DNA of 64,000 nucleotides from Psilocybe cubensis (Eukaryota): NCBI GenBank assembly GCA_017499595.2, contig CM039009.1:2418001-2482000 (forward strand), given 5' to 3'. The notes beneath the pieces were generated by a model. It ran no database searches, was not told the origin of the DNA, and saw only the letters and a program-made list of their open reading frames with translations. The number at the start of each line of letters is the position of its first letter. Within the stretch, counting starts at the first letter, position 1. A program made the position numbers and the translations under genes. Shown here in pieces: positions 1 through 61,852 of the stretch.

Positions 1-414
1 AAGATGAGTGTCAAAAACAGAATATGACCTGCAGCAATAAACATGTACCTCGCAACTCTCTACATTATATGCAGAGACAATGTTGTCAGTATCTTTCTGT
101 GAGGATGATTTAGATTTCATTCGGCAATGTGACCGATATTAATTGACTTACTTGAGGAGCCACGAATGCAGTGCTGGCGCTGTAGTGAACCGTGGCTGCA
201 CTGACACCGGATGAGTGAAACTGTAGGACCTCTGTGTTATATGTTAGCTGCGAAGTTGAAATTTACAATGAAACAACTTACTCCAGCAAACGGGGTACAA
301 GTCTGAGTACAGCTTTCCCTCAGCTGGCGGGGTGAACATAAGCATCAAGTCGATCTCCTTTCCGAGGTTGTTTGCCCTGAAGGTGAGCTGTCTGGCATTT
401 CCAGTGATAGGCAT
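1..414 (-). CDS. Family paralog A, 5' part (exons 1-3; gene runs off the left edge)
   Basis: ATG at 414 gives MPITGNARQLTFRANNLGKEIDLMLMFTPPAEGKLYSDLYPVCW|RVLQFHSSGVSAATVHYSASTAFVAPQ|KDTDNIVSAYNVESCE, with GT-AG introns at the same positions and phases as the other paralogs; closest to B. Confidence 0.9.
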
Positions 415-1615
415 TGCGAATGAGGGAGAATTGACGAAAAGAGTCGTTGCAATTTGAGATGGAAATGTCTCCTGGAGCGACTTTCCAATTTATACCATTC
501 AGGCGCTCATGTACGCTTGGTGTAAGATTCCAGATCTGTGTTTGTTCGAGCATCTTTAGTGTAACACAAGACTCTCGGCGATAGAGGAGTGCCGGACCAA
601 CGTCTTTTTAAACGATGTCGATACAATTTGACTTGCCATACGCTCCCCTGGTTTGATATAAAGTAAGCCGATTGATAAACGCCTGCACCTACATGATAGG
701 TGTTCCTTGATCTCGAGGGCTACTTACCGCATGTCGATCAATTTCCCCATAATGATGAAGGAGCACAAACATTACCGGAACCGCGTAGCCACTTAGGCAC
801 CAATGTAATGGTACAGGAACAAACACCAAGTTTATTTTACACTTTCAAAAACTTAAGACCCTTGCACGTAAACATGTCCCATCATTTTGGTATTACTTAA
901 CACAATTGTCACCACCTCGTGTGTAGTACAGGAGTACCGGACCATCAAATCTCCGAGTCTTTACGAGAAATCCGGATTCCATATTGGTGACAGAGAGTGG
1001 GAAAGTCAGTCATGCCCTGACCTGATCGCTCTAATATCCCAGAATGGATACCCCCGTATGGATGTGGGCGTTAAATTCTGCGGGAGAGCAGGTGTGTGTC
1101 CTGGGTTCGAGGCATACTGCGGTCAATGAATAACATCGGAATACATGTGTCTTCAGACAATGTTTCGACGTCCACTACACCATATTTTTATTAATTTTGC
1201 TGCTGTCGTCGTTTATTTTGTGCCTTAATGCTCTTTAGTTCACGTTGCTGTACCAAAATGTCTGCATTATGTGCCTCTTACCCTGGTATCTTCCATGCTC
1301 ACTTCAGTATGAATGGTTTTCGGTTTTGTAATTACGTGCTCACAGATAAACACTGACGCTGCGACGATGAATCGGAGACCCCTAATGTTTACATCATATC
1401 CGCATTAAAAAATAGCATTTCCAATGTTGAGCATGTACCATAAGAATTATGGGAAACGGAGAAGGCATTGGTTTTCGCAATCAGTTCAAATTGCACATTT
1501 TGGAAAACTGGAAAGACTTATGTCTCCATTAAAATTGATGAAAAGCGCTATGAATAGGGTACTAGGAAACTATTTAACGACGAGACATAGGTCAACGTCC
1601 GCCTAATATACGTGA

Positions 1616-2603
1616 CTACTTGGCGCGCACAATCTTCAACTGCAAGCTGCTAGGATCACGGACAACATTCCAGGTAGTTTCGTGAGGGAGTTGAGTAAGG
1701 TCTTGCCTAAACAACTCGTCCGTGTTGACATTTGCTGTCAAGATTTCGCTAGCTGTATCATCCACATATTGTCAGCCAAATCTTGTACGGTGATAGATAT
1801 GAATTAATGCTGTACTTACAATGATAGTCGCTGACCCCATAGATTCTCAATACGGGGGTGAGTTTTACAGCCAGAGTGGAATCGACACTGAAAAACGGGC
1901 ACTGTGAATGAAGACGTTCTGGGGGGTAAAGCCTCAAGTAGTAGCTTACCCAAGTCCGGTCCATTTAAAGATGGGTGCAACCGACTGATCCTTGCCCATG
2001 ATACCCTAATAAAATGTTCAAAACTCATTCTTCAAGTAGTGACATACTCAAGACTTACGAATGCAAGATCCGCTGGCTTTGCAGATTGGATTTTGCACTG
2101 AATGATTCCAGGAGTACCTACTCCTGGATGGGTAAGGTAATTATTTCCCTTGTTGTTGGTCATCAACGAGCAGACTTGGCCACCCTTTATAATAACATTT
2201 AGAGTGTTGTTAGAAAAGCAATATTCCTTCATACCTGGCATCTCTCAACGTTCAGGGCAGAGACTATGTTGGAATCATCGTCTTTCTGATATAGATGTTA
2301 GATTACGTTGAGTAAATAGGATTAAATTTTCCACTTGCCTGCGGAACGATAAACGCGGTGTCTGCAGTATATACCACGACTGCGGTGCTGATGTTAGAAG
2401 CACTGAATTGAAGGACCTCTGCCGAGATCAGGTTAGCATTAAAGCTAGTAAGTAGTGCGGGAACGCTTACTCCAGCAAACGGGGTACAAATCTGTAAAAA
2501 GTGTACCCTCTTTTGGGGGGTCGAACATAAGCATCAAGTCGATATCCTTTCCCAAGTTTTTGGAGACAAAAGTGAGCTTTCTGGCATTTCCTGTGATAGA
2601 CAT
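1616..2603 (-). CDS. Family paralog B, intact 7-exon gene, uncharacterised beta-rich protein
   Basis: MSITGNARKLTFVSKNLGKDIDLMLMFDPP...YPVCW|RVLQF...FIVPQ|KDDDSNIV...CQ|GGQVC...LAF|GIMGK...WTGLG|VDSTLAVKLTPVLRIYGVSDYH|SSEIL...KIVRAK*. Intron 2 (2286-2338) has a GC donor. Confidence 0.92.
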
Positions 2604-3437
2604 TTTGAAAGAGGAATTATATGGATAGTGGAGGTGTTTAGGATGATGTTTGTGGAAATATTCTCCTCAATTTATAGGCGTTCGTGTCGTGCCGCCTTTC
2701 TGCAGCGTGAGAGTCAGTGTCAGCAACTCAGGAGGGCCATCCGAAGGAGTAAACGCCCACACCCATACGGAGATATGTAACATGGCATCACGAATGATCG
2801 AATCAGGGGATCATTCATATTGCGTCGCGGAGTTGAAATGAAACTGCCCTGATCATTTAAGGAGAACATCGGTGATATGAAACGCCGAGTGTACGCCTGT
2901 AGGTGCGTTTGCGCTGTACTTGAGTAGTGGTAAATTGATTGCAGAGTACTAGCCTTGACTCCTGCGTTCGTCGATGGTACATCAGTGTCAATCTAGATCA
3001 TCTGTCTTGAATGATAACTTTGAAAATTCTCCGACGAGGACCACTCAGATTAGTCATGTAACTTATCAACTATGTCAAGTCAACAACTTCAACCTTATGC
3101 GACATATGCGCTTCCGCAAATCCTGGACAATGTTGTGATGCCATTTTGGTGATATTTATTGTTGTAAATGGTGTTGGAAGAACAGATTCGCTTAGTCTCT
3201 GAACGGTGGCAATTTGTGCTTATCATAGCATGGTACAAGTGGGAGGGTCCTCGGAATCCAAATTTGCAGGTACATATTGTTCCTGGAGGAACCTCGGGCG
3301 ATATACAATCTCCGAGGCATCGTCTGCTTACTATTAGAATCCACATGGAGTGTGTTAAAGGTAAAGTATAAAAGAGGAGAACATGACTGTGAAATCAATA
3401 CCCCAACTCTCCAGAGTCATAAATCGCATTTATAAAC

Positions 3438-4414
3438 ATGTCTGGAAACAATCGAAGACTCGAATTCGAATACTCAGACCTCCCAAAGTCATACCAGCTG
3501 ATGCTTATGTTTGAGCCTATGGCAGAAGGCAAAGTATACACCGAGATGTTCCCTACATGTTGGAGTAAGATATCTCTATATTGATATTGAAAATATTGCT
3601 GATGATACTTACAGAGGTTCTCAGGCTGATCAAAGAAGTTTCTGGGGTAGCCAAAGCAATTTATACATCGGATACTGGGTTCATGGTACCACAGGTAGCC
3701 CTATAGATATATTATGGTAAGAATAACGCCTTTCTGACATTTTTGTATAGACCGATTGCGGAAATATCATTTGCGCTGGTACTGCGCGCCCATGTGAGGT
3801 CCGTCTTTCATCAGATTTCTATAACCACCTGAACTAATTGAACTACCCAAGATGGGCCAATTATGTACTGTGATGACCGACAATGATGGAGACAACTACC
3901 TCGAGCAAGCTACAACCGGCGCAAAGGGAATCATCCAGTGCAAAGTCGACAGCTCACTCCCTGCCACCGTTGCATTTGTGTGTCACCGTCACTTTTGAAA
4001 CAGCATTTTATTGTGACTAACACATAATATAGGGAATCTTTAACACAGAAAAGACGGCCTTCGAGCCGTTGTTTACCTGGAGAGACATACCGTAAGCCAG
4101 TCTACACATCAACTTTTATTGATCAATTGCTGACATACTGCAACATGTAGGAAGGGAGACAAACTTTCGATCAAGGTTACCCCAGTTCTCAAGATCTACG
4201 CAGTCAGCAATTACCAAGGTTGGATAATGTATACTCTCGTAAATTAAACACAATTCTGACAACATCCCGCATAGAGACCGAGGTGGTCAGATCCGATGTT
4301 GTCAGCAACCTATTGTTTAGAGAGGACATACTCAATCTTCCCGCTGTATCAAGGTGGACCGTCTCAGTGGACAGTAATACCAAGTCCATTCAGATCGCTC
4401 GGGCCTTACAATGA
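3438..4414 (+). CDS. Family paralog C, intact 7-exon gene
   Basis: MSGNNRRLEFEYSDLPKSYQLMLMFEP...FPTCW|RVLRL...FMVPQ|TDCGNII...CE|MGQLC...VAF|GIFNTEKTAFEPLFTWRDIP|KGDKLSIKVTPVLKIYAV...|ETEVVRSD...IARALQ*; TATA-like GTATAAAA near 3367. Confidence 0.92.
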
Positions 4415-5074: not shown

Positions 5075-6082
5075 ATGTCTGCACCTGGCACAGTACGAAA
5101 CACGAAAAAGCTCAACTTCATGAGCAACCAGCTGTCTCGAGACGTGACTTTGGTGTTCATGTTCGCACCCATGTCAAATTTGGGCACGATGTTCTCAGAC
5201 CTTTTCCCAATCTGCTGGAGTAAGCGATGTTATTTTTTCATTGGTTCAAGTAATAACTTTGGTGGCGACTGTACTTAGAGGTCATGAAGTTCAGGAAGGG
5301 GTCGATTGATAAAGGTCTTGCGGTGTACACGGCAGACACAGGTATTGTGTATTTTTCCTTGAATTGTACTCGATGGCGTGCTGATCGATATCGACGAACG
5401 GTTTACACCAGGTTGAAAACGGAAATATTGTGCTTCCCAGCGGTGTTCGTCGCTGTCATGTAATTGCCATCTTCTTTGTATCGAGTAATATTACACTGAA
5501 AATGGACGTGTAGAACGGCCAGCGCTGCGAACTTCTAACTAATGAGGGAGAAAACTACCTCGAGGGGCCTGCAAAAGCTCCTAATCCACACAATATGATA
5601 GAATGTAATGTCAAGACCGCTTTTCCTTCTACACTTGGATTTGTGCGTAAGCTGTGACTGCATTCTGAGTGCGTCTTAGAGTTGACGTGTATGTGGATTG
5701 TAGGGCTTGTTTGACGAGTCTGGGACAAAGATGGAACCGATTTTACATGGAAGGATCTTCCGTACGTCATCCTCTATTGTGATCAGCCGTGATGCGCTAA
5801 CTGGTGCGATATTTTATCAGAAAAAGGCAAATTCTTTCGCTGGCGCTTACACCTCTTATCAGAGTATATGCTGTTACCGACATGACAGGTTTGTTCTTCA
5901 ATATAAATCCCACTTGTACACGTATTCAGATCTTCGTAGTAAACGAAGTGGTCAAAGCTGAAATGGAAAGCCCGGCGCTCCTCGACGCATATCTCGTGGC
6001 GCTTCCTACGACGTCAGGGTGGCTGGTGTATATTGAGGAAAACACGAACGCCGTAAAGATCAAAAGGATTGAAAGCTCTTAG
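5075..6082 (+). pseudogene. Family paralog D, 7 exons with a 1-bp frameshift in exon 5
   Basis: All seven exons are recognisable. Exon 5 reads CCG ATT TTA CAT GG where paralogs need ATT TTT ACA TGG (PIFTW), i.e. one T is missing in the run at 5741-5744. This could be a homopolymer sequencing error. Confidence 0.8.
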
Positions 6083-6409
6083 CTAGTAGTCGTTACCTCC
6101 AGTTGTTGACGTGGCACCATGTCCGTCGTTTAAGCGTAATATATATCAGTTTCAACCTCCGCAATTCCTGGTTGGAGTTTGAGTGAATGACGTGCACGGA
6201 ATTGGCAGGATGAAGTGGAGTGCCTTTTCTTGTCTGCTGTGATGAGTCGATATGGAAATGTCTTTTTATCTCGTGCCGGGAAGTGGTTAATTTCACACTG
6301 GCAGTCCAGTCGGTGTGACAATAATGCGTTTTCTGGACCGATATATTTTTGTTTACACAGATCTGGGGTACATTGAATTTATGAAAGAATGGAGCCATAA
6401 TGAGGTATA

Positions 6410-7302
6410 CACGGGGGCCAAAGTCCAGCACGGTAGAATTTCAACCGTGCCCGTCGCGGTTGAGATTCGAGTGAACAAAGGCGGGCCAGATTTCCGTCGG
6501 AGATTTAAATATTTAATCAGCGTAAGACTTGTTATTCTCGACATGACTTCACCTCATATTTTGCTGTTCAAAAGAGTCATGGTGAATATTATGCAAAACT
6601 CCAAAGCTTAACAGATAAATATGGAGCTAATACATATACTTAAGTTTGTCTCATGCTTCCTATTAGTATGTAGATAGCTTAATTTGGAGGCCTATTACGC
6701 AATAACTACCTTAATTACACATACTGCTCTGCGACAACTATCTGTGAGCCGAAAGCTTGATCATATCCTGTGAAACTATATGATATTAGTTAGGCAGCTT
6801 GTGTCATAGTTTAAATGTATTTTGGAACTTTATTATGCTTTGAAATGGCACCGACAATTATACTGAAAAATATGATAAAATAAAATCAATTGAGGATCAA
6901 TTGCTCTAGCAGTATTTTTGCCAGTAAAATAATTATATAGAGTGTGTTTAGAATATTATCAAGGTGTACTACAGTTGGAATTGAGGTTACTGAGATACAT
7001 CCACTCCTAATTACTTTTAAATGCAGAAGCAATAATATGCCACTGCTAATTGGAACACTATCACCAATCCATTGGCACTGTGGGCTTTAAAACTCAAATC
7101 AAACTCTTAGAGCATATTTATACTAAAATTTACATGAAGAAAATTAAGGTGTACATTGTTGCTACATCTAGAAAATATAATACACACAATTTTGTTGGCA
7201 AAGTGTGCTTGTGGAATGACATCAACTTGATTACGTGGTCCCAAAATCTCAACCGTGACGGGCATGGTTGAATTTTGACCGTGCTGGACTTTGCCTCCTG
7301 TG
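6410..7302. mobile_element. Non-autonomous TIR element (MITE, CACTA-like termini), 893 bp
   Basis: ~58-bp imperfect TIRs (CACGGGGGCCAAAGTCCAGCACGG... / ...CCGTGCTGGACTTTGCCTCCTGTG), 3-bp TSD ATA (6407-6409, 7303-7305), AT-rich non-coding interior. Confidence 0.85.
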
Positions 7303-7819
7303 ATATGGGAACAAATTGAAAAGCTTCTGATGGCATCGGACAAACCTGCAAATGGTTGGGAGTCATAAGCATCATCCCTCTACATCCAAAAGTATAACAA
7401 TGTGGGGGCAAGTGATGCAGAAACCTGATAACATGAAAGATAAAAGGAGAATTTAAACACCCTGACGACGTAAGGCTAGATTGAAACCTAACAAGAGCTC
7501 CCATTGCAGGTAATACTTAAAGTATGTGACAGTATATACTTGTTTGTATAGTGGACTCAGTGCAGGGTGTCGGAAGTCATTCATCCATAGCAAGATTGTT
7601 TTCTACACAGCCGTCCGGTTGTCGAGGTCTGAACTAAGTCACGGGGACTGCAGTCAAACCGGAGGCAAACTAGGGACAAACCCAGGAATGCTACCCATTG
7701 GAAATTCCAAGTCTGGGTGACTTGGTGTTGACCCATGTGGTCATGGGTTTATTGCATGTCCTATGTGGCAGACTTCGGTTTTAAACACGGAATTTTTGGA
7801 GTCTGCAAAGACTTGGAAA

Positions 7820-8033
7820 CACCGCTGGCGCTCATACATATTTTTAAAGAAAATAAGACCCAATAATTATGTTTTCTACATTTTTTTGATGTATTTTATT
7901 GGAATATAGACTTCGGGCTTCCCTAATTGGGTAACCCCAAACTCTATATACGAGAAAAATACGTCAAAAACCAACAGGAAACATAATTACCAATACATAT
8001 TTTTCTATCAAATATGTATCAGCGCCAGCAGTG
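7820..8033. mobile_element. Short foldback MITE, 214 bp
   Basis: CACCGCTGGCGCTCATACATATTT ... AAATATGTATCAGCGCCAGCAGTG, imperfectly palindromic along its length; 3-bp TSD AAA on both sides. Confidence 0.8.
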
Positions 8034-8182
8034 AAATACCGTATTGTTTTGCATGTGGTGTGTTGCCTAGCAATCACTCGGCATACCTGCCGGACGATGT
8101 CTGCATAACGCCTCGTGATGTCACATTGGTTCGTGCGTGGGAATAATAAACGGTCTAGCCCTCTCCAGGCCTCAAGAAATCA

Positions 8183-9372
8183 CACGATGGGCACCTAACT
8201 GTCATGTGGCTATCTAACATGTTAGCTAGGTTGTTGCCATAATATTGTGCTATGTTAATTGTCATGTAATTGTCATGTTAACTGTTGGTTAACTGTCATG
8301 TTTTTTGAGTCACACTCTGTCTTGTCACTCAAGACCATGGGGTCCAGTAGATACATATCCGGTTGACTTGGGGGAAAAATGAAAGGACATGTAGAGTGTA
8401 TATATTAACACTGCACCACCTGGCCAATATTAAACACTAGGGGCATTGGCTTAAGAAAACAGTAATTTGTCTGAATTTTTTTGATTGATCAAGTTGCAAT
8501 TAAATTTCAAGATTTATTGACAATAAAATTCATGTGGTGCACATCATGGCGGTATTTGAATCCATCAATACCCATGCCAAACGGCCGTTCTCAAAGGTAT
8601 TAATCATGCTCGCTAGAATCCCCCTATTCATATCAATTTCTTCCAATATGGCGCGTACTCGCGCGTTAGAGAGACAGCATGCACCTACTAGATATCAGCA
8701 AAATAAGGACAAGAATCTCACTTCCTGGGAAAAAATGGCAATTTTCCTCATTAACGATGCAAAAACGGTCGACGAGCAAATAGTCGCAACCATGTTCTCA
8801 CATCTCGCAAACTAAGATTGGAAATCACGTCGATTACAGGCTGAGAGGCTTTCTATAGATGGGTGTGATCGTTGACAGAATGCGCACCTTGCCATGCATT
8901 GGAAAACATAGCTGAAAACGCGCGCAAAGAGGAGACGCGCCGCGAAATAAAGACGCGTTTCGACGCGTCAAAGCTCCTTGACTACGCCGTTGCTGCGGTC
9001 GGCATGTTGGCCGCTTTTAAGCTCATTCAAACTCAGAAAAGCACACCAACAGTATATACCACATGAATTTTACTACCAAGAACGTCAGCTAAACTGTTCC
9101 ACATGGTTTTAAAAATTAAACAACATCGTAAAAAAGAGAATTGAGTAGCACTATTGTCCCCAAGTTGACCGGTTATGTAACTGCCAGTTTGGGACTTGAA
9201 GACTATTCACGGTTCACAGAGACTTACTGGGTCTTGAGTGACAAGGTAGAGTGTGACCCAAAAAACATGACAGTTAACATGACAATTACATGACAATTAA
9301 CATAGTACAATATTATGGCAACAACCTAGCTAACATGTTAGATAGCCACATGACAGTTAGGTGCCCATCGTG
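8183..9372. mobile_element. Non-autonomous TIR element (CACG termini), 1190 bp
   Basis: ~150-bp TIRs (CACGATGGGCACCTAACTGTCATGTGG... / ...CCACATGACAGTTAGGTGCCCATCGTG), 3-bp TSD TCA (8180-8182, 9373-9375). Confidence 0.9.
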
Positions 9373-9394
9373 TCAGTCATGAATGCATGACTTG

Positions 9395-10074
9395 CCCTGC
9401 GAGCGCCGACCGCTGTAAGTTAAACATAGAGCAGAAAACTTACATGTCTTATGTAAGTTTCGCTGTAAGTTCGACATACAGCAGACGTGTATGAAAAACA
9501 AACACTCAGCAAAGACATATTGTGTTTGGTGGCTGTATGCCGACCAAACACAATTGCTGTAAGTAGACTGTAAATAGAATAAACACCTAAATTACACAAA
9601 CTGTGTTTGTCCGGTGTTAGTAAAACATACACATTTTCTGTAAATGACACAAACAGCACTTTCTGTAAGTAAAATTTACACACAAAAATTTACACACAAA
9701 GAACACTATTTGTGTATGTCAGACTTACACCATTAAATGAATTGAAAAACTTGTGTAAGTATAACATACACAAATTGTTTTCTTTCTGTGTAATTTTTAC
9801 TTATAGTAAGTGCTGTTTGTATTACTTACAGAAAATGTGTATGTTTTACTAACACCGGACAAACACAATTTGTGTAATTTAGGTGTTTATTCTATTTACA
9901 GGCTACTTACAGTAATTGTGTTTGGTCGGCATACAGCCACCAAACACAATATGTCTTTGTTAAATTTTTGTTTTCCCGACACATATGCTGTAAGTTGAAC
10001 ATACACCTAAACTTACATAAGACATGTAAGTTTACTGCTGTATGTTTAACTTACAGCAGTCGGCGCCCGCAGTG
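9395..10074. mobile_element. Foldback MITE with ~280-bp inverted arms, 680 bp
   Basis: Arms are near-identical (the mirror ORFs 9420..9683- and 9810..9998+ give the same peptide); termini CCCTGCGAGCGCCG / CGGCGCCCGCAGTG; flanks TTG/CTG are an imperfect 3-bp TSD. Confidence 0.85.
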
Positions 10075-10725: not shown

Positions 10726-11770
10726 ATGTCCACCAACGCTAGATCTGAAGAAGAAAGACAACTTTCTTTTGTTTTCAATGATCTGAAAAGGGATATCAAC
10801 TTAGTACTCATACTCTCTTCACCTGGAAATTTTAAGGACATAGACCCTCTCTGTTGGAGTTCGTGATTGCTTGTTTACGGTTTTGAATGAGTGCTCACCA
10901 TACAAATCTCTATAGAAGTTGTGAACCTCCCTGCTGGAATGATAGGCCTAGCAAAAGTTACGTACAGCGGCGTAACCGCTTTTTCTATTCCCAATGCAAG
11001 TTTAAAGTCACAACTTGACAGCATGAACATGTGCTTACATATACTCTTTACCGCCAATTCCATTGACAGGACGATACAGGACTTGTTGATGCTGAATCCC
11101 CCACGGTTTCTTGCCAGGTGTGCACGGGATAGTTCTTAATATATGAGCGGTTCTCATTACCATTTTTATCCAGGTTGGCCAGCGGTGCACCATCAAGACG
11201 GATGACCAACGAAAAAACTATCTTGTGCCTGCTGTTTACGGTCAACCTAAAGTCATCACATGCCACTTCGACACAAGTTCCCCAGCTGACGTCGTATTTG
11301 TATGTCTCTCTCCTTTCCATTTATGTCATGTATTCAGCTTGGGGTAACCATGTTTCATTACAGGGGCTAATTGACAGTGGCGGACAGTCGCCTTTGAGCC
11401 CGATTTCAAAGTAGAAATCTATCATGTGTGTACTAATGTCCAATAGACATTTTTGAAGAACAACCAATATTCTGACCTTCCATTCGTAGGCCAGGAAATG
11501 ATCTGTCTCTGAGATTCACTCCAATCTTAAGTATTTATGCCGTTGATGGTTATAATGGTGAGCCAATTTTGTACAATACCATACACACATGACTCAAAGA
11601 GGAGCCACTGGTGTCGACAACCAACAGCTGGAGATGTAATCACCTCAAATGTAAGGGACTCGGAATTGTTACTCCATCAAGATCTTGGATATCTTCCTCC
11701 AAAGACAAAATGGGAGGTCCTTTTTGACGAGAACAGCGGCGCTATCAAAATTGAACGTCAAAGGAACTAA
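10726..11770 (+). pseudogene. Family paralog E, divergent copy with an in-frame nonsense codon
   Basis: Seven exons recognisable (MSTNARSEEERQLSF...PLCW ... KIERQRN*). The conserved exon-5 Trp is TAG at 11412-11414. Intron 2 (10996-11069) has a GC donor. Confidence 0.85.
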
Positions 11771-12032: not shown

Positions 12033-13006
12033 TTATGAACGGTTAATCTTGATTGCGTTGCTCGCTGGGTCAATAGACACAATCCATTCGGTAAAGTTTG
12101 GAAGAGCGATGAGATTCTCTTCGAAGAGAAGAGGTGAGCGGATTTCTCCTCGCACAAGCTCGGTTTCTGTAATGCAAACACTGTTTAAGAATATGACAAA
12201 AATAATTGAAGAGACCAACCTTGATAATCTGTCATGCCGTAGATCCTCAATTTAGGGGTGAGCTGTACGGCAAGGGTGCTTCCCACACTGAAGTGTAATG
12301 TCAATAGAAGACACCAATTTTGGTCGGATAGAGTGCATACCCGACTCCATCCCATTTCATGACGGGTTCAATTTTGTTCCCTGCCTTGTTAAAGAGTCCC
12401 TACTCAAGACGGCTTAGAATTGACAGTAGCATTAGCAGTACAGTATAGCGGGTGACGTACAAAGGCAACCTCAGACGGGCGATGAGTCTTAAATTCGCAA
12501 AGTATAACACCGGGATCTCCAGCAACAGCGGGATTGAGGAAGTTATCGCCTTCGTCGTTGGTCTCCATGACACACATTTGGCCAGTCTGATATTAGACTC
12601 GTAAGAAGGGTGTGTTGAAGGAGTGGTGTAGACCATACCTGGCATCGTTGTGCGTTGGAGGCGGCAACAAGGTTCCCGGTGTCCCTCTTTGTGATTATTC
12701 AAAATGAAGCGCTTCAAGCAAGGAAATGAGGCATATATCAACACACCTGGGGAACCAAGAGCCCGCTGTCCGCGGTGTACTCAACTCTAGCTGCACTGAT
12801 TCCACTAGGGGTGAATTTGAGAACCTCTGTAAAGGTGATGAGGTTCTGATACACCTATATGTGAGCGACCGCGACGTACTCCAGCAGACAGGGAACAAGT
12901 CCTTGTATAAAGTGCCATTCTTTGGTGGTTCGAACATGAGCAGCAGGTTGACGTCCCTGCCCAAGTCACTGGAGGTGAAGTTGAGGCTTCTTGAATTTCC
13001 AGACAT
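12033..13006 (-). CDS. Family paralog F, intact 7-exon gene
   Basis: MSGNSRSLNFTSSDLGRDVNLLLMFEPPKNGTLYKDLFPVCW|RVLKFTPSG...VPQ|RDTGNLVAASNAQRCQ|TGQMC...VAF|GLFNKAGNKIEPVMKWDGVG|VGSTLAVQLTPKLRIYGMTDYQ|ETELVRGEIRSPLLFEENLIALP...KINRS*. Confidence 0.93.
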
Positions 13007-23400: not shown

Positions 23401-23476
23401 CCAATCATTTCATCCATTCCAGCATTCATCTGTTTTAGTACCGTGCTGAACATTCACAAGCAACAACATACCGGCC

Positions 23477-48541: not shown

Positions 48542-51500
48542 GGCCCGATACTGATAGGAGTGATGCGAAAAATAAAAAAGGAAAAAGAAAAAGAAAAGAA
48601 AAAGGGAGAGGAGAAAGGAAGGGATTATTGCTTAGCTTTGCGACAGTTTAGATAACACTGTACCTGTGATGTCCAATAATGATTAGTAGGCTCGCATGGC
48701 TAGTTCGGGGGACCCTTTTTTATACCTTTATGAGCTGGATTGTCGCTTAACTGGTTTGGTTCTCTCTCAAATTAGCATGGCATTGGTTCAGACCCTTTTT
48801 CTTGTATTTTCGGCACAGATACTCGCGTAGATTATATTCGCAGACTAAGCTAAAGTTGGAAAGCACGATTAGATTGCAGGTTACGGTAGTATGTAAGTAT
48901 GCTAGTAGTCCATTAATTCCATCCCTCATAACACTTCTTCGTGGGTCTCTTTGTATTTCTGCCTTTGCAGCTATTGTATTGGCCGCAATCTTGACAGCGG
49001 TTGCGACACAGGTTAACGTTGCTGCTTCCGGAGCAGTCTCTTTGGCCACATTTGCGGCACGTCCGCCGTTTTCGTGGCTTTTTGATTGGCTTTGTTTTCT
49101 GGAGTGATTCAACCACTCGTTGACGCGCAAGCTTCTCCATAATGATTTTGTTCTGTAATTGATGGCTTCTAGGCGAGGTAGGGCACATTTGCTGATGTTC
49201 GAGTTGTTGAGGAGCTGAAATAACATCTGTTTCGCGCCAAAATTCAATGTCCCGGCTTGCCATGTCATCGCGAGAAAGCTGTTGACTTGGTAAATCCGAG
49301 TCAACATGCATGGCATTTGTTGTAATGGGCAACGGTGCCAACATGCGATTTCCATTATCATTGGTTTCTAGCAAGCCTTCGCAAGCAGTGAGAGGTTGTG
49401 GGCACGGTTTGAAAGGTACAACAGGTGCTTTTCGTGAACGTGATGGGTCGTGAATGATGATTGAGAGTGGTCCACGGATATCTGCAGTAAGAGACAGAGT
49501 TTCGTGGATGTGTGAAAGTGTTTTCCATTTATTATAATATGCGCTCAATTGCTCAACAAGCTAAAAAAAATGAATATTTGGACTAAGATGTTACTCACAA
49601 ACAAAAAGACCAAAACAACATACCTTGTAAGAGACATCATTTGTTATGTCAGCCTTTGCATTCCATACTGGAACTGCATCTCGCCATTGTGGCTCTCCAG
49701 ACACCGGACTAAAGGCAGCGTGACTTTTGATCAGATCATGGAAGAGCTTCTTTTCCGTTGCTGTATGAACAGGTAGCACAGGCTTTCGAGTGCCCTGAAT
49801 ATTGGCAAGATACTGATGCATTTGTGGCTGATTAGGAATAACAGTATTTGAATTATATGGAAGCATGCCTGTGGCCGTTCGAATGCTTTCTGGAATAGGC
49901 AGAATCCCAAGAACTTCAGTCGTTGGCGAATAGAGGTTGCCATTGACCCAGCCATCAATTTGGACTGGGTTGATGAGTATATTGTCGAGTGAAATTGTAA
50001 GTTCCTGGAGTTTGTTTATGATCCATATCGAGAAATGACTTCGATATGGTTGGCCAGTAGAGTTGTATGTACCCGTCTAAAGTCATGTTTAGTTAGTAAT
50101 TGTTGAAATTTGATTGAAATAGTAAATTTACTTACCTGGAGATTGTGCCGAAGAACAAAGTCCTTAAGACAAGCCTGCATATGTCGGAAAGACGTGCCAA
50201 ACTTTGGCAAGCGGGACCGTATATGGGTATGAACACCGCCTTCAGTTGTATTTGTACCACGGGCACATCTGTATATGGGAAGGCCTGTTGATTTGTCGGT
50301 CCCAATTCGTGTATACAAAGGAATTCCAGGAGGATCAGATAAATATCCTCCTATAGCAAGTTCAAGAATACATTTGGCAGTTTTCCAGCCTTCCACTGAA
50401 AACAGGGGCTTTTTGGTTTTGGGATCCCTCAAGGGACCATATGTGCGAAAGACTTTGGCAAGATATTCATAGACAATATGTGGTGATGGAATATGGTGCT
50501 TGCATCGTTGACGTACCCATTCTGAGCGTGAATTTCGTAGCTGCTCATATGTTTGAGGTGGAGACCACGTTGCACCAATTGCGTCAATACGATCCTTGTC
50601 ATCTTTATCAGGAATAAAGATTGCATCGCGCAGATCACGAGTAAACTGCTTTCGGAGCCCATGAGTGGCGGGAATGTAGAACATGTGGAAAACATGCCAC
50701 ACGTCCTTGATGACACGACTGTGCAGTGTATAATCCCACTGATCTGGATCTTTTCCCAAGTACTCCTTGCAGAATAACACACTTTCAGGATCAACCTCAA
50801 AGCCTTGCACAGAATCAGTAGAACATCCTTCAGAGAGGTCATCAGATAAGAGATCCCCAACCGAGCAAGAAGGCTCTGAATCATTGGGTGCAGCAAAGTC
50901 ACATTCGGAATCAGCATCCTGAAAAATGCTTGCAGATTCATAGGGGGTTTCGGTTTCAGGCTCGGAGCTGGCAGATTCACAAAATTTGATTGTCCTTGTT
51001 GATGAGGCGGCAGGATCATAAAGTCGAAGATGGCTCTGTAAGCAGACTATCGAAAACGGTGTTTGGCCAAACGATTTCAGAGTTTGCCGACGATGCTGTG
51101 GAATAATCGCACCCGGAACAAGAACTTTGAGAACATCAATAACTGTTCTCCGTGCAGAAACTTTGATTCCATCATATGTTTGGCTTCGGGCGTGACGTGA
51201 TATTTGACCTTCTGCAATGATTGTAGTGTTATCGTTGCTGAAGAGAATGACCGGCATGCAAGGTTCCACCAATGATGGGAGTAGAGATGGCACTTTGATG
51301 TTTTGCATTTCTTTGTAGAGGCAGAGCGAAGCGTATGCATCTTTTGCAGCATAGCTTAACTGCTCGGGGGACAAAACAATATTCTCCCACAAGTTACTGA
51401 TTCGTTCTGGTACATTTTTGTCGAGACGTTTATGCAAAATCCGTGCACACAGATCTGCCAGACTTGTTTTTGAAATATTTGATATTAAAAGGCGATCTTT

Positions 51501-54256
51501 GGCAAGTTTTCCAAGATCAACTCCCCCGACAAAGTCATACGACGAGTTAGAGGCTTTTTGGAGATAAGAGAGGTCAGATTTGATCATCCGACCCACTTTC
51601 AAAATTCGTGGATGAGCGAGTAACAGCTTTAGTTGATGTGGCAGGTCCCCCTTTGCAAGCATTTCACTAATCTAATTTGTAAAAGCAGGTCAGGTCACTA
51701 TACTATAATATTCATCAACAAAAACCCACCTGAAGCACATATATGCAATCCTGATAAGCAATTTGTATAATCGCTGTCTTGCCACGATGGGTCACGTGAC
51801 CACGAGACGAAAGCTCTACATTCCATTCAGAATCAAAACCAACAGCAATATATCCCTGATCCTGGGGAACATCATCGAGAATAGATCGTGCAGCATCATT
51901 GATTGAGTGTGGTGAATCCTTGGGAAGAAGCTTGACCTGCGGAGGAAGTTCAAAGGGCTCCAAATCTGCATACTTTTCAACTGGCACTACACCGGCTCGA
52001 AGAGAAGGGAAGCACCGCTCCAAGAATGCCTTATCGGTGATATTATCGGTGAAGAAAAGTTGAGGCTGGGAGTGACCGTAAAGATCAAGAGACTTTGCCA
52101 TGGCTTTCAAAGGCAATTCAGATTGTGATTGCGCTTTGGTTGCAACAAGATTGCACGTCCTTATTTCGCCTTTTTCATTGGTTACCGTAAGAAGGCCAGT
52201 GAAAACCTGTTCACCTTCGACACGGGCTAAGTGTTTTGTAATCTATATTGCTTCCAATTAGCAATTAATCAGAGAATTGAAGAAAATATACTGACTTTGT
52301 GGCTATGGTCAATAGCACATATCTCACCCGTCAACATCGCCGTGTGCTGGTTGAAATCGTGGCCGTGCTTTTCAATAAACGAGTCATACATATCTCGAAT
52401 CCATTGGGCACTAGGAATATATCCATGACGTCCTCTTGGGCTTGTGTCATTGAAGGGCAGAAAGGATTCAAATTTTCTGTTATTCCAGGTGCCATCCAAT
52501 GTGTTTCTTCGTTCGCAAAGGTGTGTCAGATACTGCAGATTGAGCAGGTCATGTCGAAGCAGATGCTGTGTACGCAAACCGTCGGAAAATTGCTTTGTTC
52601 CCATACCATTCTGAATACAGGTTCTCAACCAATTAAACGCTGTCTTGGATATGGCACTACGATAACTTATTCTTGCTGGAAACTCAGCAGCCAGTGATGA
52701 AGGAAGCATTTTAAGGATCTCGGGATCCCAACTTCGAAATGTGACTGTACGTGTTCCAGGTTTTGAATAAATACATGTGGGGCAACGGTAACGATATCCG
52801 ATAATATAGAATGTTGAGTCCATATCAACACATCGACGAGGACGTGGAATTTCAGAATGCCGTTGCAAGCGTCTTCCGCACTTGGGGCAAGAGATACCGT
52901 CGTTGCAAAGAGGAAGGGGATCCCAGAGCATAAATCGAGAGTCATAGCAATCGGGAGGTGATGGGTGCGACGAGTTTCGAAGAATGAAATAAACCGATTT
53001 TGTCGGAAACCAAAATGTGTGTTGATTGGCATATAATGGAGGCAGACCATTTGCGTCGCGTTGCCGCGACTCTTTGAGATGTTGTCGAAATTGCTCCATC
53101 AGCCACTCGGGTAACGGCTTTACCATGGGAGCTCCAGAAGACAAAGGTGAAGGGCAATCTTCATCGTCATCCAAATCATCTTCGACACCAACACCATCTC
53201 CAGATGCATCGTCATCATCCAGCGGCACAATTTCGCGCTGTGGATCTTCACTACCAATAATTGTATCATGTGGAGGCGTTGTGTGGGTAGATGGTGGCGG
53301 ACGTGTGGTGCAGGGATTGGATGCAACCAACTGGCCGCTGTGCAGTTGAGGCGGTACACTGGGTCTGGGACTATGATTTGAACTGCGGGATGGTGGAACA
53401 AAGGAATAAGGTGGGGCAAGCAAAGCTGGAGGTGTTATCCTGCTAGTACCAGGATTTGTCTAGAAAATAATGAGAAGAAAGATATCACAAAACAAAAAAC
53501 CACGCACCGATGTCCTGAATTCGATCGACACTGCAGGAGATGCCAACTTCTGTTTTTTTGGCCTTCCTCGTGGACGTTTTGCAGGCGGCGCTACTCCCTC
53601 TAACGCTAGTGCAGCCGCTCGCTTTTGTTTGTACCCGGATCCAGGAGGTCGACCGCGTCGTGGACGTGGGGAATCGACGGCAACGGTGTGCGCACACGTT
53701 GCAAGAGGGGCCGTCACCGACGACGAAGGTGTCCCAAGAGCTGCATTTGGGGCATCGGCAAGATTATCTGTGTGGGAAGTGACAACCGTGAGTGTGAGTA
53801 CCCTAGAAAGCAGATTCTGATGAACTAGTTCGCATACCATTGATAGTGATGTTGTGCAAGTTTCTCGTATAGGTAGGCCTCCCAGCCAAGTTCCTAGCAC
53901 TGCCAGTGCACTTTAGTCACGGTTCAAACAAGCAAACAAGGCCTTCTGGCTCACCTTGCGTCAGCATTGCCTCCGAGCCTCAAAGGTGCCCCAAACTGGC
54001 TCTGCATTCCATTCTGTGCAGCCGGAATGTGATCTTGTTCGCGTTCGTTGTTCACAGGAAATAATTCCGTGTTCATAAATAAACGAAGCCGGTTATCGAA
54101 GGCAGTACAAAGAGATTTATAGCTGGAGTTGTCGTTCTCGTTGGGTTCTCGAGAACGGATGCACGGGGATGACTTCATAATTACATAATATTTTCCGTGA
54201 TTTTTTTCAAACTCAGAATCCGTATCCGTATCCGTCACCGCTATCAGTATCGAGCC
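48542..54256 (-). mobile_element. Apparently autonomous DNA transposon, 5715 bp, short TIRs, 8-bp TSD
   Basis: TIRs GGCCCGATACTGATAG / CTATCAGTATCGAGCC (1 mismatch in 16); TSD CATTTTTT (48534-48541, 54257-54264); encloses one large spliced gene. Confidence 0.85.
48913..54076 (-). CDS. Putative DDE transposase (~1,600 aa, 8 exons): AT-hooks, DUF6729-like Zn region, embedded DEDDy 3'-5' exonuclease, C-terminal Cys cluster
   Basis: Splicing joins the ORFs in frame: RRGRPP and RPRGRPKK hooks; FWFP..WDPL..CPKC..RRCVD..YRYRC; AIDHSHK|ITK; LFFTDN; ExoI VGFDSEW, ExoII KSDLSYL, ExoIII YAAKDA; KDVWH; RCARGTNTTEGGVH; CRKC..C..C..CQDC..C. The two 5' exons are less certain. Confidence 0.8.
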
Positions 54257-56150: not shown

Positions 56151-59100
56151 CTATAATGAGTGATGATTACAGGTGATGTTAAGTTTGCTTAGCATTGAAA
56201 TCGTGGAAGGAAATGTCAGATATTTGTCCACATATCGGCGTGCTCGTTTAGCGATTTCGGGTTGCTCACGGCTGACAATGAGTTCCAGTTCCTTGAATTT
56301 GGCATTGAGAGAGATCCCTTCCTCGTGTTTCCCCAGAGCGCAGTTGAATGTGCTCTCCAGATAGAGTGCACGTGCAAGCGACGGGAATGAGCTGCGTCTC
56401 TTTGCCGTCCTTGCCTCATAGTATACCCGCACCTTTTGGATTGCTTCCAACGCGTCTGAAACAAGGCCCTTGGAAGCTTTGTGCATAGCATGGACTTCCA
56501 AGGCATTGATATACCTTGGTTGATGATATGCCTCTTCTGAGTCTTCGAGAGATTGAATCGACTTTAATAGTCTTTCTGAAGTTTGAGCCGCCTCGATATC
56601 ATTACCCACGTCGCCGAGAACATGAGATAGAAAGAGATAAATATCGCCTCTTTCAGAATTTCCGCATCCGTCTCCACATGAGAGTGATAATTGCAGGGCT
56701 TCTGATATATAACCTAGTGCAGCATCGTAGTCACCCGTGTTTCTGGATGCCAAAGCACAATGCTGAAGACAGGATATGTACTCGTGATGGTGCTCTTCAA
56801 AGTGCATGCGAGCAAAAGTCTCGTATTTCTTGCTCGCTATGGAGGCTTCCGCGTATCGACCGAGATCACCGAGGATAACAACTCGTTGGTTCATGGCCAT
56901 TATGAGCTCTTCATATATGTCATCGTTTGTTGGATGACAGCTTCCGATTTCAATGGCCTTGTCAAGAGCGTCCAATGGCGTCGGGATATCTTTACGTCCT
57001 GGAGCACTCATCACATGGAGCACATTGGAATACGAAGTGAGGGTTTTGATGTAACATACAACCTCATCTGGGGCCTCAGCTGGATGACGATTGAACCAAG
57101 AAAGACCATGCTGAATGGATGTTAATGCATCCTCTAAGCGATCCAACGACATAAGGACCTTTGTATGATGGTTGATGCTGTCGATGTACACCATAGAGTA
57201 TTTGTCTGGGTACTGCTCCGCCAACCTCTGAGCGTGTTCCAGACAGGTCTGGGTCCGTTCTAGGCGAATGCTTTGTTCCAGATCAACGACCACTGTCAGT
57301 TTGAAGTTCAATGTCAAGCAATCGACGTAGTGAGAAGCCTGAGTTGGCTTGGATTTCATAGTTACTGAAAAGAACCTGAGCGCTTCTCCCCCGTATTGGA
57401 ATGCTTTGGCGTATTCCTTGTTATGGAATTGGATGTGAACAAGTCGGTTGAGAACCACTCCGACAGTGATTGGGGTGTGATATACATTCTCGTCCGTGGT
57501 GGAAACCAACATACGGAGTTGCAGGAGGCACTCTTGAAGCTCTCTACTTGCCTCGGGGTACATTCCAGCTTGGAAATAATTCATTCCATTGTCGAAATAC
57601 TGCTCTGCCACCAGGCCAGAAGGTCCTCTCGACGTGTCTCGGAGGAGTGATGCTAGCTGAGTCCCATATGTTGCAGCTTCTTCATATCTTGCGAGGCTGC
57701 TCAACGTCGTGACCAGTGAGAAAAGTGCCTCCGAGCGAAACACATGATCCTCAAAGGTATCTGCATAAGCTAGAGTAGATATCTCTTTCCAGTCGGATAT
57801 GGCGGCGTCGTATTGTTTGAGATTTTTCAAGAATTGCGCCTCTATCTTGAGGGCAGTACACAGTTCGCCCCGAAAATCCCTGTCTTCGCTTTGCTTATGA
57901 AATACCCTGAGTTCTTTCACACAGTTCTGTGCATACTCTAGATATTTATACTCGTCCAGGAGATTGAGAGACATGACTTCGTCGCTGCAAAGTTGAGAGA
58001 GAAAGACGGAGATTTGATGTGTGCCGTTGCATTGATCGCATAGCGTATGCTGGCTTCCCTGGAGTAGCATGTCCAGGGCCTTGACAGCAGTCTTGAATAC
58101 CCGCTCGAATTGGTGGGTGCTCCAGAAAAACATACTTGAATGGATCATAGCATGGACGTAGCGACATAAAGCACCGTCTTCACGAGAACGCAGGCTGAGC
58201 GCCGTTGTTTCCGTAATTGGGGAGGAAACGTTACCTTCGGACACATCCTGGTCCTTGGTAACGATGTTCTCGTAGACAGTAATGGTATCGTTGGCAAAGT
58301 TCGATGATGCCTCGAGTTTATCCTTTGCAAGCATGATGCAGGACAGTTGTAGAAGCAATGTCCCAAGCAATGCATTCACTTCCGCGTCGTTAGATGGGTC
58401 ACCAGTCAGTAACTTCCTACCGATGAATATGGCGTCATTGATGGTATCTTCTGCGTTGCTGAGATTATCACTCCCAGAATAGAGGTAAATCTCGGATAGA
58501 AGTCGTAAACTCGCTGGAAGGTAGCGGTGGTATATGGTTGAATCTGTTTCCGCCCACGCTCTACACAAATTGACTGCCCAGACTGCAATAGTGATGGCCT
58601 GTGAGTAAAGTCCGAGTCGACATAACCCATAGCAGAGATTGGCGATATTCTGAGAGCTAGACTGGAATGATGCAGGTTTACGATGTCCAGACAAGCTTGC
58701 CTGCACATCAAGTGCTAATGCAATAACTTGTCTCTCGATAAGTTTCCTGTCAAACATGTTGCAAAACACCGTGTTAGAGGTTGGTGGTAGATGTAATAGC
58801 TGTGATGGCGGGAATGCATCGAGTGAAAATGACAATCCTTGGCCAGAGAACATTTGGTTCAAATATGTATTGATGTTGTTGAGTTGATCGAGAAGGAAAA
58901 CATAGGAGATATCATCTGGGCTGAGCGTATGAGACTGTGTAGATATCTGAGTTGACACTGTTATCTCCGAGCCTATGTTGTCGGCCGTGGTAGTCAGCTC
59001 AGTGCTAACTACTGAGGTATCGACAACGTCGCTGATGTTTAATTTGCGAGCTACTGCCTCAACCATTCTCTCGGTTCTCGCAAGAGAAGAAGTCTGTTTG

Positions 59101-59660
59101 TATCAAAAGTCGTAAGGGGCATCAGCACAAACAGCTCTCTCAAACTGAATACGAAAATACCTGAAAGACGTCATGATAGCTTTCCATCTCATGTCGAATC
59201 TGGTTCAGTCGTCGGTTCAACTCTTTGCCACGCATCCAAGTCCGAATCCTGTTCCGAATCCTCTCAAACCTATTCGACGAATCTTCAGAGGGTACCAGCT
59301 CAAGACAGTTGATACGCGAAGCATCTAGGTTTCTTAGAGTTTTTGCGTCAGTGAGACTGCCGAATCTGGAAGTAACCATTGCATTACTCTATCAAATGAA
59401 ACAGTGTAGCACCTTGGGCTACTTCTTCGCTGGGCAGAACCGCTTTCATTTCATTTACTGAGTCTTCAATTAATTTCGCGAGCCTCTCTAAGTCTTCACG
59501 ATTTCCCCTAGCCTGTGCGTTAATATAACAATAAGAAATGAGCTGTGAAGTGATAATGTGCAGATGATAGAAGACACACAGCAACGTATGATTGATGTAG
59601 AGCCATAATCTCCTTGAAGGAAGTTGACAGCACACCGTAGCCGATGCTGACTGGGTCCAT
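56151..59660 (-). CDS. MLKL-like/four-helix N-terminal domain plus long TPR-like solenoid protein (~1,100 aa, 4 exons)
   Basis: MDPVSIGYGVLSTSFKEIMALHQSYVA|ARGNREDLERLAKLIEDS...LIE|NLDASRINC...RIRTWMRGKELNRRLNQIRHEMESYHDVFQ|TSSLARTERMVEAV... joins the 971-aa ORF with TPR-like repeats (LGLYSQA, LARYEEA, LDRLEDA, LGRYAEA, LGKHEEG). No Walker A motif seen. Confidence 0.85.
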
Positions 59661-60831
59661 TTCTTTCAGTAAAATAATGGTGGCACGCAGTTGTAGAAGG
59701 TAGGGTTAAACGAGACAGTAGTATCCATGATGCTCAGACTCAAGCCTTTTTATAAGACCAGCATGGATATCATGGCGTTGTTGTGCGACGGACTCGACCC
59801 GATTCTGCGCAGCAACGATTATGAGGTATGACAGGTTCTGAGACAACTATATTGTGTGTAGTCAAGAATAGTTTGTGAAGGTGTTGTAAATTGGGCGCCC
59901 TCTAGGGGCTTCCTGGTAACGTTACGTTGAACCCTGTGTTCTTATGTGGTCCGTGTCCATTTCATACATTTCAGAGATAGAAAGGCCTATGTCAATGACC
60001 TAAAATACACAGGTTAGCAAAACAACACTGAAGACGCTGAGTACTCCCCTGGGCCAACCAAAATATGGTGAGTATAACTTCAAGTTCAACAGATAATAGC
60101 AAACCTCGCAACACGAGATACTACGAGGAGGCTCCGATGATGGTCAATCTTCGATACTACGAGTGTGACTTGTTGTTAGAGTTGACTGTTGGGACGTGTG
60201 ATATTCCAAAGATGTCTGCCGTCATGCCTTGTTTATTATATTCGATATACTATACCAACCTGTGACACCGCGTATCCTTTACTGAACCTTTTCGGAACAA
60301 GGTTCTCGTCTTCGCTTGTTTTGGACTGAGTTTGAAATATTCAACATTTTGTGATTCCATCAGTTCTGCAGGTCTGCCGTAAAATTATGTAACACATCTT
60401 TTGAAAACCACTTTAAAATATCAGCTTATTCATTAAGCACATTTGAAGTCAGAGATCTGAGAAAGAGGATATCAAGGCCAAAAAGCGCTCACAAAGTGCA
60501 CACTACAAGCCAAGGCGAATAAGAAATTTATTCAATGCACTGTATACTGTTTTCAATCGCAATCTAGGCAAGTTTAATTCATATGAAAATGGCTTACCAC
60601 GTTCGAATATCTTTACTTGAGGCAATATTGGTTGAAGAAGTCTCTCACGGTCGAATGATAACTGTATCCACTCATTTGTTCCTACCGGGTATGGGATAAA
60701 AGTGTATAGCGTGCAATCCGTGTACCCGGGTACGTACCCGGCACATCACTGAATCAAAGAATACTATTGACGTAATGTTAGGGAAATGTTTAACGACGAG
60801 ACTCGCGTCAACGTCCACCGGATATTTGTGA

Positions 60832-61130
60832 CTACTGGGCGTGCACGATCTTCAGCTCGAAGCTGCTGGGGTATCTTGTCTAAACAGCTCGTCGGAGTTC
60901 ACTTCTCCCGTGAGGATCTCGCTGGCTGTGTAATCCCCATGAATTCAGTCAGAACGTGTGCAATCATATAAATGTATTGATTGTCGTGCTTACATTGATA
61001 GTCACTGACTGCATAAATTCTCAATACGGGGGTGAGTTGGAGAGCCAAGGTCTTCCCAACCCTACAAAAGAGACATGCATCAGCGAAGGTCACCAGAGTG
61101 TACGAAATGATGAGTAATGGCTCACGGAAC
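60832..61130 (-). pseudogene. Family paralog L remnant (exons 6-7 plus the end of exon 5), B-like
   Basis: VGKTLALQLTPVLRIYAVSDYQ|SSEILTGEVNSDELFRQD[internal deletion/frameshift]PSSFELKIVHAQ*; the 3' flank aligns with that of paralog B. Confidence 0.85.
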
Positions 61131-61139
61131 CGCTTTAGC

Positions 61140-61852
61140 ATCCCGATTGGGATGACAGAAGCCACGGAGGTTCACAACCTGCAAGGTACGAGATTGTATA
61201 GAAAATGCTCTTTTGACATAAAAGGACAATGGAGACACAAGGCACAACTGTTGGCAGGCCATTAATTTGTTACCGGCGTTGTTGTACTCCGAACGTGTGT
61301 CAAGCTACTTGAGGTAGGCGATAAATATAAATATGTAACTGTGATCTGAACATCTTGACATTGTAATTTGTAAGTTTATTGCTTCTCAACAACAGGCCAA
61401 TATCGGGACCGACGGAGAAATCAGCTCTGATCTGCGGAATGAAACTCAACATCGGTACGTATCACATTAACGGCATATTTGACAAGACTGGGACGCAGAT
61501 TGAGCCTATCTTTACATGGAAGGAGATCCCGTATGTCGTCCCCGTCCATAGCTCAGATAAGACGCAGTGTATTGACGCGCCATATCTATTAGGAAAGGGG
61601 ACACTCTCGCGCTAGCCCTTACCCCTGTGCTCAAGATATATGCTGTCGCCGACATTAAAGGTATGCTCCTAAGTATGCTCAGCGTTCTGAACCGCCACAC
61701 CAAATCTTTTGTAGTCTCCGAAGTGGTCAAGGGAGAGGTCCAATCCGGTGATATTTTCGCGGAAAAACTCATTCCACTCCCTCCAACGTCCAACTGGGAG
61801 GTCTACGTACATTGATGATAACAGTAAAGCCAATAAGATCAGAAGGCTGTAG
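61140..61852 (+). pseudogene. Family paralog M remnant (5'-truncated, frameshift near the 3' end), D-like
   Basis: ...GIFDKTGTQIEPIFTWKEIP|KGDTLALALTPVLKIYAVADIK|VSEVVKGEVQSGDIFAEKLIPLPPTSNWEVY[4-bp duplication]IDDNSKANKIRRL*; 3' flank TTGTTGACGTTGGCACCA matches that of D. Confidence 0.85.

Follow-up and report, generated by a model that had tools for sequence, protein, structure and literature searches.

What are the genes in a stretch of mushroom DNA that an open reading frame (ORF) list passes over, and what might their proteins do? The DNA examined here is a 64,000-nt stretch of Psilocybe cubensis (the window), which is AT-rich, with a GC content of 0.39–0.48, and has no long ORFs in its left 48 kb. 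A first-pass annotation made from the letters alone had proposed a hidden array of 13 paralogs, found by manual splicing and encoding small cytoplasmic beta-proteins with a possible defensive role. We find that the array is real, far beyond chance. Taken as a whole, the data are best explained, with a probability that we put at roughly 0.55, by an all-beta protein family of Agaricomycetes that would form a remote branch of the bacterial RhiA/PSMB beta-sandwich proteins and would serve as cytosolic small-molecule binders.

One copy, c03 (3438–4414, plus strand), was first spliced by hand, and its protein was used as a tblastn query against the window. This search returned 13 separate loci on both strands, c01 to c13, with best E values per locus from 2.6e-34 to 1.8e-4; the count of 13 refers to this window. 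Exon structures came from a purpose-written protein-to-genome spliced aligner that used c03 and ten public relatives as queries. The resulting inventory agrees exactly with the copies previously labeled A to M: six are intact (B, C, F, G, H and I, our c02, c03, c06, c07, c08 and c09), A is cut by the window edge, and D, E, J, K, L and M are disabled by differing lesions. Each intact copy has an open, seven-exon coding sequence ending in a stop codon and encodes 210–228 amino acids, with introns of 49–67 nt, and the conserved motifs that had been listed are present. c03 itself, with 215 amino acids, GT-AG introns of 50–59 nt and intron phases 1,0,0,0,2,1, was not found among the retrieved public proteins. 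These phases had been described as common to all complete copies and hold in five of the six intact ones. The exception is c02, whose second intron can be read in phase 1 with GT-AG borders, as in the public model, or in phase 0 with a GCAAGT (GC-AG) donor, so that it follows the shared pattern only if the latter donor is used.

The array is hidden only from a prokaryote-style ORF list. Public protein models exist for at least c02, c06, c07, c08 and c09, along with fragments of c05 and c13, and several are listed by NCBI as hypothetical proteins; the models of c05, c07 and c13 in the public record are poor. Five further family members, JR316_0012702, JR316_0012707, JR316_0012708, JR316_0012709 and JR316_0012736, are on the same 2.56-Mb contig and do not map to the window, indicating that the cluster reaches past both of its ends. 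The window would thus be part of a larger P. cubensis cluster encoding leaderless all-beta proteins of about 210–230 amino acids.

At least one copy is a working transcription unit. c08 (19425–20411, minus strand) is intact and encodes 213 amino acids that match the public protein P0001 (JR316_0012722) letter for letter. Among the public 213-residue proteins, its first exon is 100% identical to JR316_0012722 and 93% identical to JR316_0012719. We looked for transcripts in two sequencing runs of one study, X1 and X5, which we guessed to be RNA, although no record states this. In X1, a 715-nt contig lies on c08 with a mean word depth of 1131, a figure that cannot rank genes and from which we draw no conclusion on expression level or on other copies. 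The contig skips six stretches whose ends are GT..AG on the gene strand (CT..AC on the plus strand), and its joints at 19555/19619, 19686/19754, 19811/19874, 20000/20055, 20102/20156 and 20235/20285 are exactly the six predicted introns. Because these joints match all six, we conclude that c08 is transcribed and spliced as modeled, which answers for this copy the earlier suggestion that transcription of the intact genes be checked. No contig of the c08 type was seen in X5.

To what family do these proteins belong? A word-based protein search returned only proteins of P. cubensis and P. cyanescens. A phmmer search against 1.84 billion representatives reached further: 216 representatives matched at E<=1e-3, of which 106 also passed E<=1e-10 and 10 passed E<=1e-30. 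Thirty of the matched clusters were looked up, and all 17 that carried an organism name belong to Agaricomycetes, from 11 genera and six orders: Psilocybe, Galerina, Crucibulum, Leucoagaricus, Coprinopsis, Paxillus, Heliocybe, Lentinus, Obba, Ramaria and Ceratobasidium (lineage verified for three of the 11). The remaining 13 clusters are contigs of 761–1666 bp bearing uninterrupted full-length ORFs; as the Psilocybe genes have six introns, these are probably assembled transcripts. To call the family uncharacterized, as had been done, overstates the case, since several copies already have public entries as hypothetical proteins and members are known from across the Agaricomycetes. Some relatives (P0045, P0058, P0096, P0077 and P0040) carry extensions of 80–260 amino acids without a Pfam match, which are C-terminal in Lentinus and Obba and N-terminal in Ramaria, while P0040, from Ceratobasidium, carries a Cupin_8 domain at its N-terminus. 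These longer relatives could be genuine fusions or could result from gene models that were merged.

Known domain collections do not recognize the family. Using a copy of Pfam-A that lacked PF27136, we found no family for P0001 or for P0002 (the protein of c06), for any of the 109 members of the family alignment, or for nine of the ten longer, fusion-type members, the exception being Cupin_8 in P0040. NCBIfam likewise gave no family among the 109 members. No sequence in the Protein Data Bank (PDB) matched P0001 below E 0.25 or the family profile below E 0.9. F25 and N117 are the only positions conserved in at least 90% of the 109 sequences, the consensus consists mostly of hydrophobic, glycine and proline positions, and there are no catalytic-looking conserved residues. 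The cysteines of the listed motifs are kept within Psilocybe and not family-wide, and no internal sequence repeat was found in the family profile.

The fold of the proteins is predicted with high confidence. AlphaFold2 run on the 109-sequence alignment gave an all-beta model of 17 strands with a mean predicted local distance difference test score (pLDDT) of 95.9 and a predicted template modeling score (pTM) of 0.90; all five models had a pLDDT of at least 95.5. This run superseded one on ten close sequences (pLDDT 53), and it bears out the expectation of small beta-proteins. A crude hydropathy scan found neither a signal-peptide-like nor a transmembrane stretch (maximum Kyte-Doolittle mean over 19 residues <=1.25), in keeping with the absence of an evident leader noted before. 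When the model was compared with the PDB by Foldseek, no entry matched at E <= 0.001.

The first-pass annotation had remarked, with low confidence, that the order of the motifs recalls bacterial RhiA-like proteins. To examine this we used RhiA from the Rhizobium leguminosarum plasmid pRL10 (L001:19865-20560), annotated in its record as 'protein RhiA'. Around it we collected 302 homologs (120 of them listed) and, in addition, 43 genomic loci spread over several bacterial phyla. Aligned by hhalign with a 30-sequence RhiA profile, the fungal profile reached a score of 33.6 (E 5.4e-4) along 131 colinear columns, and 32 reversed or shuffled controls scored no more than 18.4. With a 52-sequence RhiA profile the score rose to 37.4 (E 1.5e-4, probability 52%) over 165 colinear columns, pairing fungal residues 32–207 with RhiA residues 54–231 in the same order at about 15% identity; here 40 shuffles scored 23.2 or less and the reversed profile 16.3. 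None of the 72 controls reached the real scores. Searches with hidden Markov models (HMMs) were reciprocal, at about 15 bits each, with best per-comparison E values of 3.6e-7 among the 120 RhiA homologs and 5.5e-7 among the 164 proteins of the fungal set.

Predicted structures and language-model features point in the same direction. In the ESM Atlas, both P0001 and the Galerina protein P0025, which share 32% identity, had a feature score of 0.95 to bacterial clusters, some of them partly annotated as RhiA_N (PF27136). The clusters nearest to P0001 are bacterial proteins of 205–210 amino acids, and one of them carries RhiA_N on 10% of its members. The Atlas model of P0025 (pTM 0.86) retrieved four bacterial clusters at template modeling (TM) scores of 0.73–0.76 over 194–200 of its 220 residues, and the next row fell to 0.37. 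Two of these four clusters are partly annotated as RhiA_N; among the first three rows, one carries it on 16% of its members and another is a 210-residue, Bacteroidota-dominated cluster (87% Bacteria) that also appeared in the feature search. The fungal family is therefore likely to be a remote RhiA homolog that shares its fold, as judged from sequence profiles and predicted structures, and the earlier remark is moderately upheld by the profile, reciprocal-HMM, language-model and structural comparisons. The sequence link itself is weak, and the profile evidence is moderate and not decisive.

RhiA (from R. leguminosarum, also R. johnstonii) and the fungal proteins are alike in being single domains of similar length (231 against 210–228 amino acids, within a superfamily range of 205–235), in the colinear profile alignment of about 165 columns, and in the fold that the Galerina homolog is predicted to share with RhiA_N-containing bacterial clusters. 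A biochemical function has been assigned to neither. They differ in that RhiA is bacterial, intronless and encoded in the quorum-sensing-controlled rhiABC operon, whereas the fungal proteins lack its N-terminal extension of about 20 residues and have no precomputed PF27136 assignment. A literature search, which did not cover subscription journals, found no report linking RhiA to proteins of Basidiomycota and none citing the present locus tags; the one paper in which both terms occur deals with soil fungi. The gene that separates rhiA from rhiC on pRL10 (L001:20682-21269), which would be rhiB from its position, bears the annotation 'tail fiber protein' in the plasmid record.

A function is suggested by another relative of RhiA. 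PSMB1a of Pectobacterium parvum is a RhiA homolog of 209 amino acids with a 'butterfly-wing' beta-sandwich fold, and it binds solanidine with a Kd of 0.103 uM and salicylic acid with one of about 9 uM (PMC13490719). It is the only RhiA relative for which an activity has been measured, namely the binding of small molecules. It resembles the fungal proteins in its length of about 209 residues, in its beta-sandwich, in that no classical signal peptide is reported for it, and in tandem expansion, as it sits in a four-paralog island compared with at least 13 loci here. It differs in being associated with bacterial virulence and in binding plant defense metabolites, and its relation to the fungal proteins runs through RhiA only, no PSMB sequence having been compared. 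Because this biochemically tested homolog binds solanidine and salicylic acid, we tentatively propose that the fungal proteins may be cytosolic small-molecule binders, a proposal by analogy to which we give somewhat less than even odds. The family would then be a remote, intron-bearing fungal branch of the RhiA/PSMB superfamily, in which the intact copies would be plentiful in the cytosol and bind small, mostly hydrophobic molecules, whether secondary metabolites of the fungus itself or foreign ones. Paralogs would differ in ligand range, and gene duplication and loss would tune the repertoire.

If this is so, an expressed, tandemly expanded and confidently foldable fungal branch would turn RhiA/PSMB into a cross-kingdom family. 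RhiA had no assigned mechanism, and in the PSMB study a bacterial homolog bound plant defense metabolites. Small-molecule binding would also be a concrete, cheap hypothesis for 'hypothetical proteins' across the mushroom-forming fungi. For Psilocybe in particular, it would flag an abundant family of candidate metabolite-binding proteins. What is new here is the putative fungal, intron-bearing, tandemly expanded branch of an RhiA/PSMB-like fold family, in which the array and the cross-kingdom link are solid enough to test and the function is suggested by analogy. A bolder version is quite improbable in our estimation: that the Agaricomycete RhiA-like proteins go back to a gene that a fungus acquired from a bacterium long ago, no later than the base of the mushroom-forming lineage, and were repeatedly expanded as highly abundant cytosolic 'metabolite sponges' that buffer or sequester the bioactive indole alkaloids of Psilocybe itself or the toxins of competitors. 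The array would in that case be a ligand-diversified binding repertoire and not a toxin family.

A number of results weigh against reading the family as RhiA-like small-molecule binders. Ligand binding by the fungal proteins is proposed by analogy, and the authors of the PSMB study describe direct evidence that RhiA itself binds plant metabolites as limited (PMC13490719, 2026). Transcript cover was found for c08 only, and c02–c07 had none in X1 or X5, which is not evidence that they are silent. The fold match relates a Galerina homolog to clusters in which RhiA_N occurs on only 10–37% of members, and not the c08 model to RhiA itself. In precomputed Pfam assignments, PF27136 (PF27136.1) is present on all 120 RhiA homologs listed and on none of ten Psilocybe proteins; as now defined, PF27136 does not include the fungal family. 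Against the single RhiA sequence, the fungal profile gave a probability of 3.8%, pairwise BLASTP with RhiA gave no match, and the best hhalign probability, as given above, is only 52%. Searching five RhiA-bearing bacterial genomes with the fungal profile gave no match at E<=1, and 401 Pseudomonadota genomes yielded a single chance-level match. Relatives of rhiB and rhiC were not found in the window by tblastn of RhiB and RhiC (best E 0.09), though a rhiABC context is not expected in a eukaryote. In addition, tblastn of P0001 against the plasmid collection yielded only noise at E = 8.

The failure of PF27136, of single-sequence comparisons and of whole-genome searches to connect the two groups, together with the ceiling on the hhalign probability, is what would be expected if the family were an invention of the Agaricomycetes that has converged on a common two-layer beta architecture. 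The biology of RhiA and PSMB would then be uninformative. We consider such convergence unlikely. It does not sit well with a colinear, near full-length alignment that beats every control, with reciprocal HMM matches, or with TM scores that hold over about 90% of the length before dropping sharply to the level of unrelated rows. The feature similarity, shared by two members as distant as P0001 and P0025, and the like lengths of 205–235 amino acids also argue for common descent.

The first-pass annotation favored a different role, that of cytoplasmic fruiting-body effectors, lectins or toxins directed at nematodes, insects or microbes, stored in the cytosol and acting after ingestion. The lectins with which mushrooms defend themselves tend to be abundant cytosolic proteins whose genes form paralog clusters. 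Agaricomycete fruiting-body lectins and toxins, such as galectins, ricin-B-type and fucose lectins and aegerolysins, share with the present family a small size, the lack of a leader, a beta-rich fold and clustered paralogs, and the all-beta prediction, the crude leader check and the turnover within a tandem multi-copy array all suit such a role. So does the depth of the c08 contig, which far exceeds the 5–31 of neighboring transcripts in X1 and is matched by no contig in X5, a pattern that fits condition-specific high expression, although depth is a poor measure. No sequence-family match ties the proteins to known lectins or toxins, however, and the fold rows are weak, with TM scores of at most 0.17 for lectins and 0.18 for cytolysins. 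We regard a defensive lectin or toxin as doubtful but worth keeping in view, and it and small-molecule binding are not mutually exclusive.

How has the array evolved? In a maximum-likelihood tree of 31 proteins, c02, c03, c06, c07 and c08 share a Psilocybe clade (support 95/82) with 12707, 12708, 12709 and 12736 and with five proteins of P. cyanescens; c09 and 12702 lie outside that clade, among other Agaricales. Some of the duplications are older than the split of P. cubensis and P. cyanescens, as seen from the grouping of P. cyanescens 010785 with 12708/12709 (support 99/98), and others are specific to P. cubensis (c06/c08, c03/12707 and c02/12736). The intact copies share 33–56% pairwise amino acid identity, apart from c06/c08 at 87%. 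Synonymous divergence (dS) is saturated in every intact pair except this one, for which dS is 1.43, nonsynonymous divergence (dN) is 0.076 and dN/dS is 0.05. c06 and c08 are under strong purifying and not diversifying selection; no sign of diversifying selection was found, though site-wise tests were not run. With its intact genes and pseudogenes and its old and young duplicates, the array has the local expansion and birth-and-death character first attributed to it, in the form of a turnover that has gone on for a long time under purifying selection.

The broken state of 6 of the 13 loci, the transposon-like sequence and the indel polymorphisms between copies could also mean that the array is mostly debris. 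In that case c08, and perhaps c06, would have a housekeeping or developmental role, and the other 'intact' copies would be unexpressed young pseudogenes. This is very unlikely in our judgment. Outside c06/c08 dS is saturated, yet c02, c03, c07 and c09 keep open seven-exon frames and canonical splice sites, which is unexpected for long-dead genes, and close annotated relatives or deep branches of c02, c03 and c09 imply long retention.

The other intact copies show how well the public models agree with those built here. c02 (1619–2603, minus strand; seven exons, 216 amino acids), c06 (12036–13006, minus strand; 213 amino acids) and c09 (25724–26711, minus strand; 210 amino acids) are letter-for-letter identical to P0011 (JR316_0012716), P0002 (JR316_0012719) and P0014 (JR316_0012724), respectively. 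c09 represents a divergent lineage, with PVAW and GGKC where others have PVCW and GQ.C. For c07 (14577–15595, plus strand), the homology model is intact and encodes 228 amino acids with a longer N-terminus, whereas the public model P0017 omits the conserved exons 2 and 3 (14789–14868 and 14921–14968) and uses an unrelated exon at 14894–14973 instead. The comparison thus exposes one mis-modeled gene, c07, and two fragment models, those of c05 and c13.

The incomplete and disabled copies have each taken their own course. c01 (34–414, minus strand) retains its start methionine and exons 1–3, the remainder lying beyond the left window edge (spliced alignment to P0011 with a score of 297; tblastn E 6e-11). 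c04 (5099–6067, plus strand) is a pseudogene in this strain: exon 5 is frameshifted near 5741, and exon 2 has lost 17 nt from its end. DNA runs X2 and X3, from other isolates in one study, carry these 17 nt behind position 5336, where the window does not; since their presence re-creates both the conserved motif and the splice donor of exon 2, this lesion is an allele of the window's strain. c05 (10744–11758, plus strand) has an exon-5 frameshift, an in-frame premature stop and a degraded LMF.P motif, and the 100-residue public fragment P0114 overlaps its 5' end. c10 (29457–30110, minus strand) consists of exons 1–5 with degraded motifs, and recognizable exons 6–7 were not found downstream. c12 (60873–61060, minus strand) is a fragment of exon 6 and part of exon 7, and c13 (61418–61846, plus strand) has exons 5–7 with a frameshift near 61804, overlapped by the 86-residue public fragment P0090.

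In c11 (42259–43743, minus strand), exons 2–7 are open and exon 1 is split by a 541-bp insert (43109–43649, no strand assigned) that resembles a miniature inverted-repeat transposable element. Its 61-nt terminal inverted repeats, at 43109–43169 and 43589–43649, are perfect (100% complementary), which suggests a recent insertion. The element occurs as a single copy in the window.

The array is interspersed with other genes and with repeated DNA. Its supposed lectin-like neighbor is an ORF between c08 and c09 (23450–24109, plus strand) with a DUF5648 domain (E 5e-20). The supposed MLKL/TPR gene is a 983-residue ORF (56154–59102, minus strand) that does match TPR_12/TPR_2, but its N-terminal 420 amino acids gave no MLKL-type match and matched neither a Pfam family (E <= 0.01) nor a PDB sequence. 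Ten further ORFs between copies have no Pfam family. Between c07 and c08 lies a transcribed neighbor gene (18022–18779, plus strand), covered by an X1 contig with GT..AG joints at 18206/18280, 18449/18538 and 18631/18779, whose ORFs have no Pfam match. Long ORFs at 50019–53459 (minus strand) contain DUF6729 (E 1e-14) and a DNA_pol_A_exo1 3'-5' exonuclease domain (E 1e-11) and are probably a large gene derived from a mobile element. At 6407–7302 there is an 896-bp presence/absence polymorphism: contigs of X2 and X3 are joined at 6406/7303, and the stretch occurs as a separate contig of higher depth. Adjacent to it, 7403–10070 is a high-copy repeat with a depth of about 950–2540 against about 78 in DNA run X2, an elevation of 10- to 30-fold that points to repeated or transposable DNA between c04 and c05.

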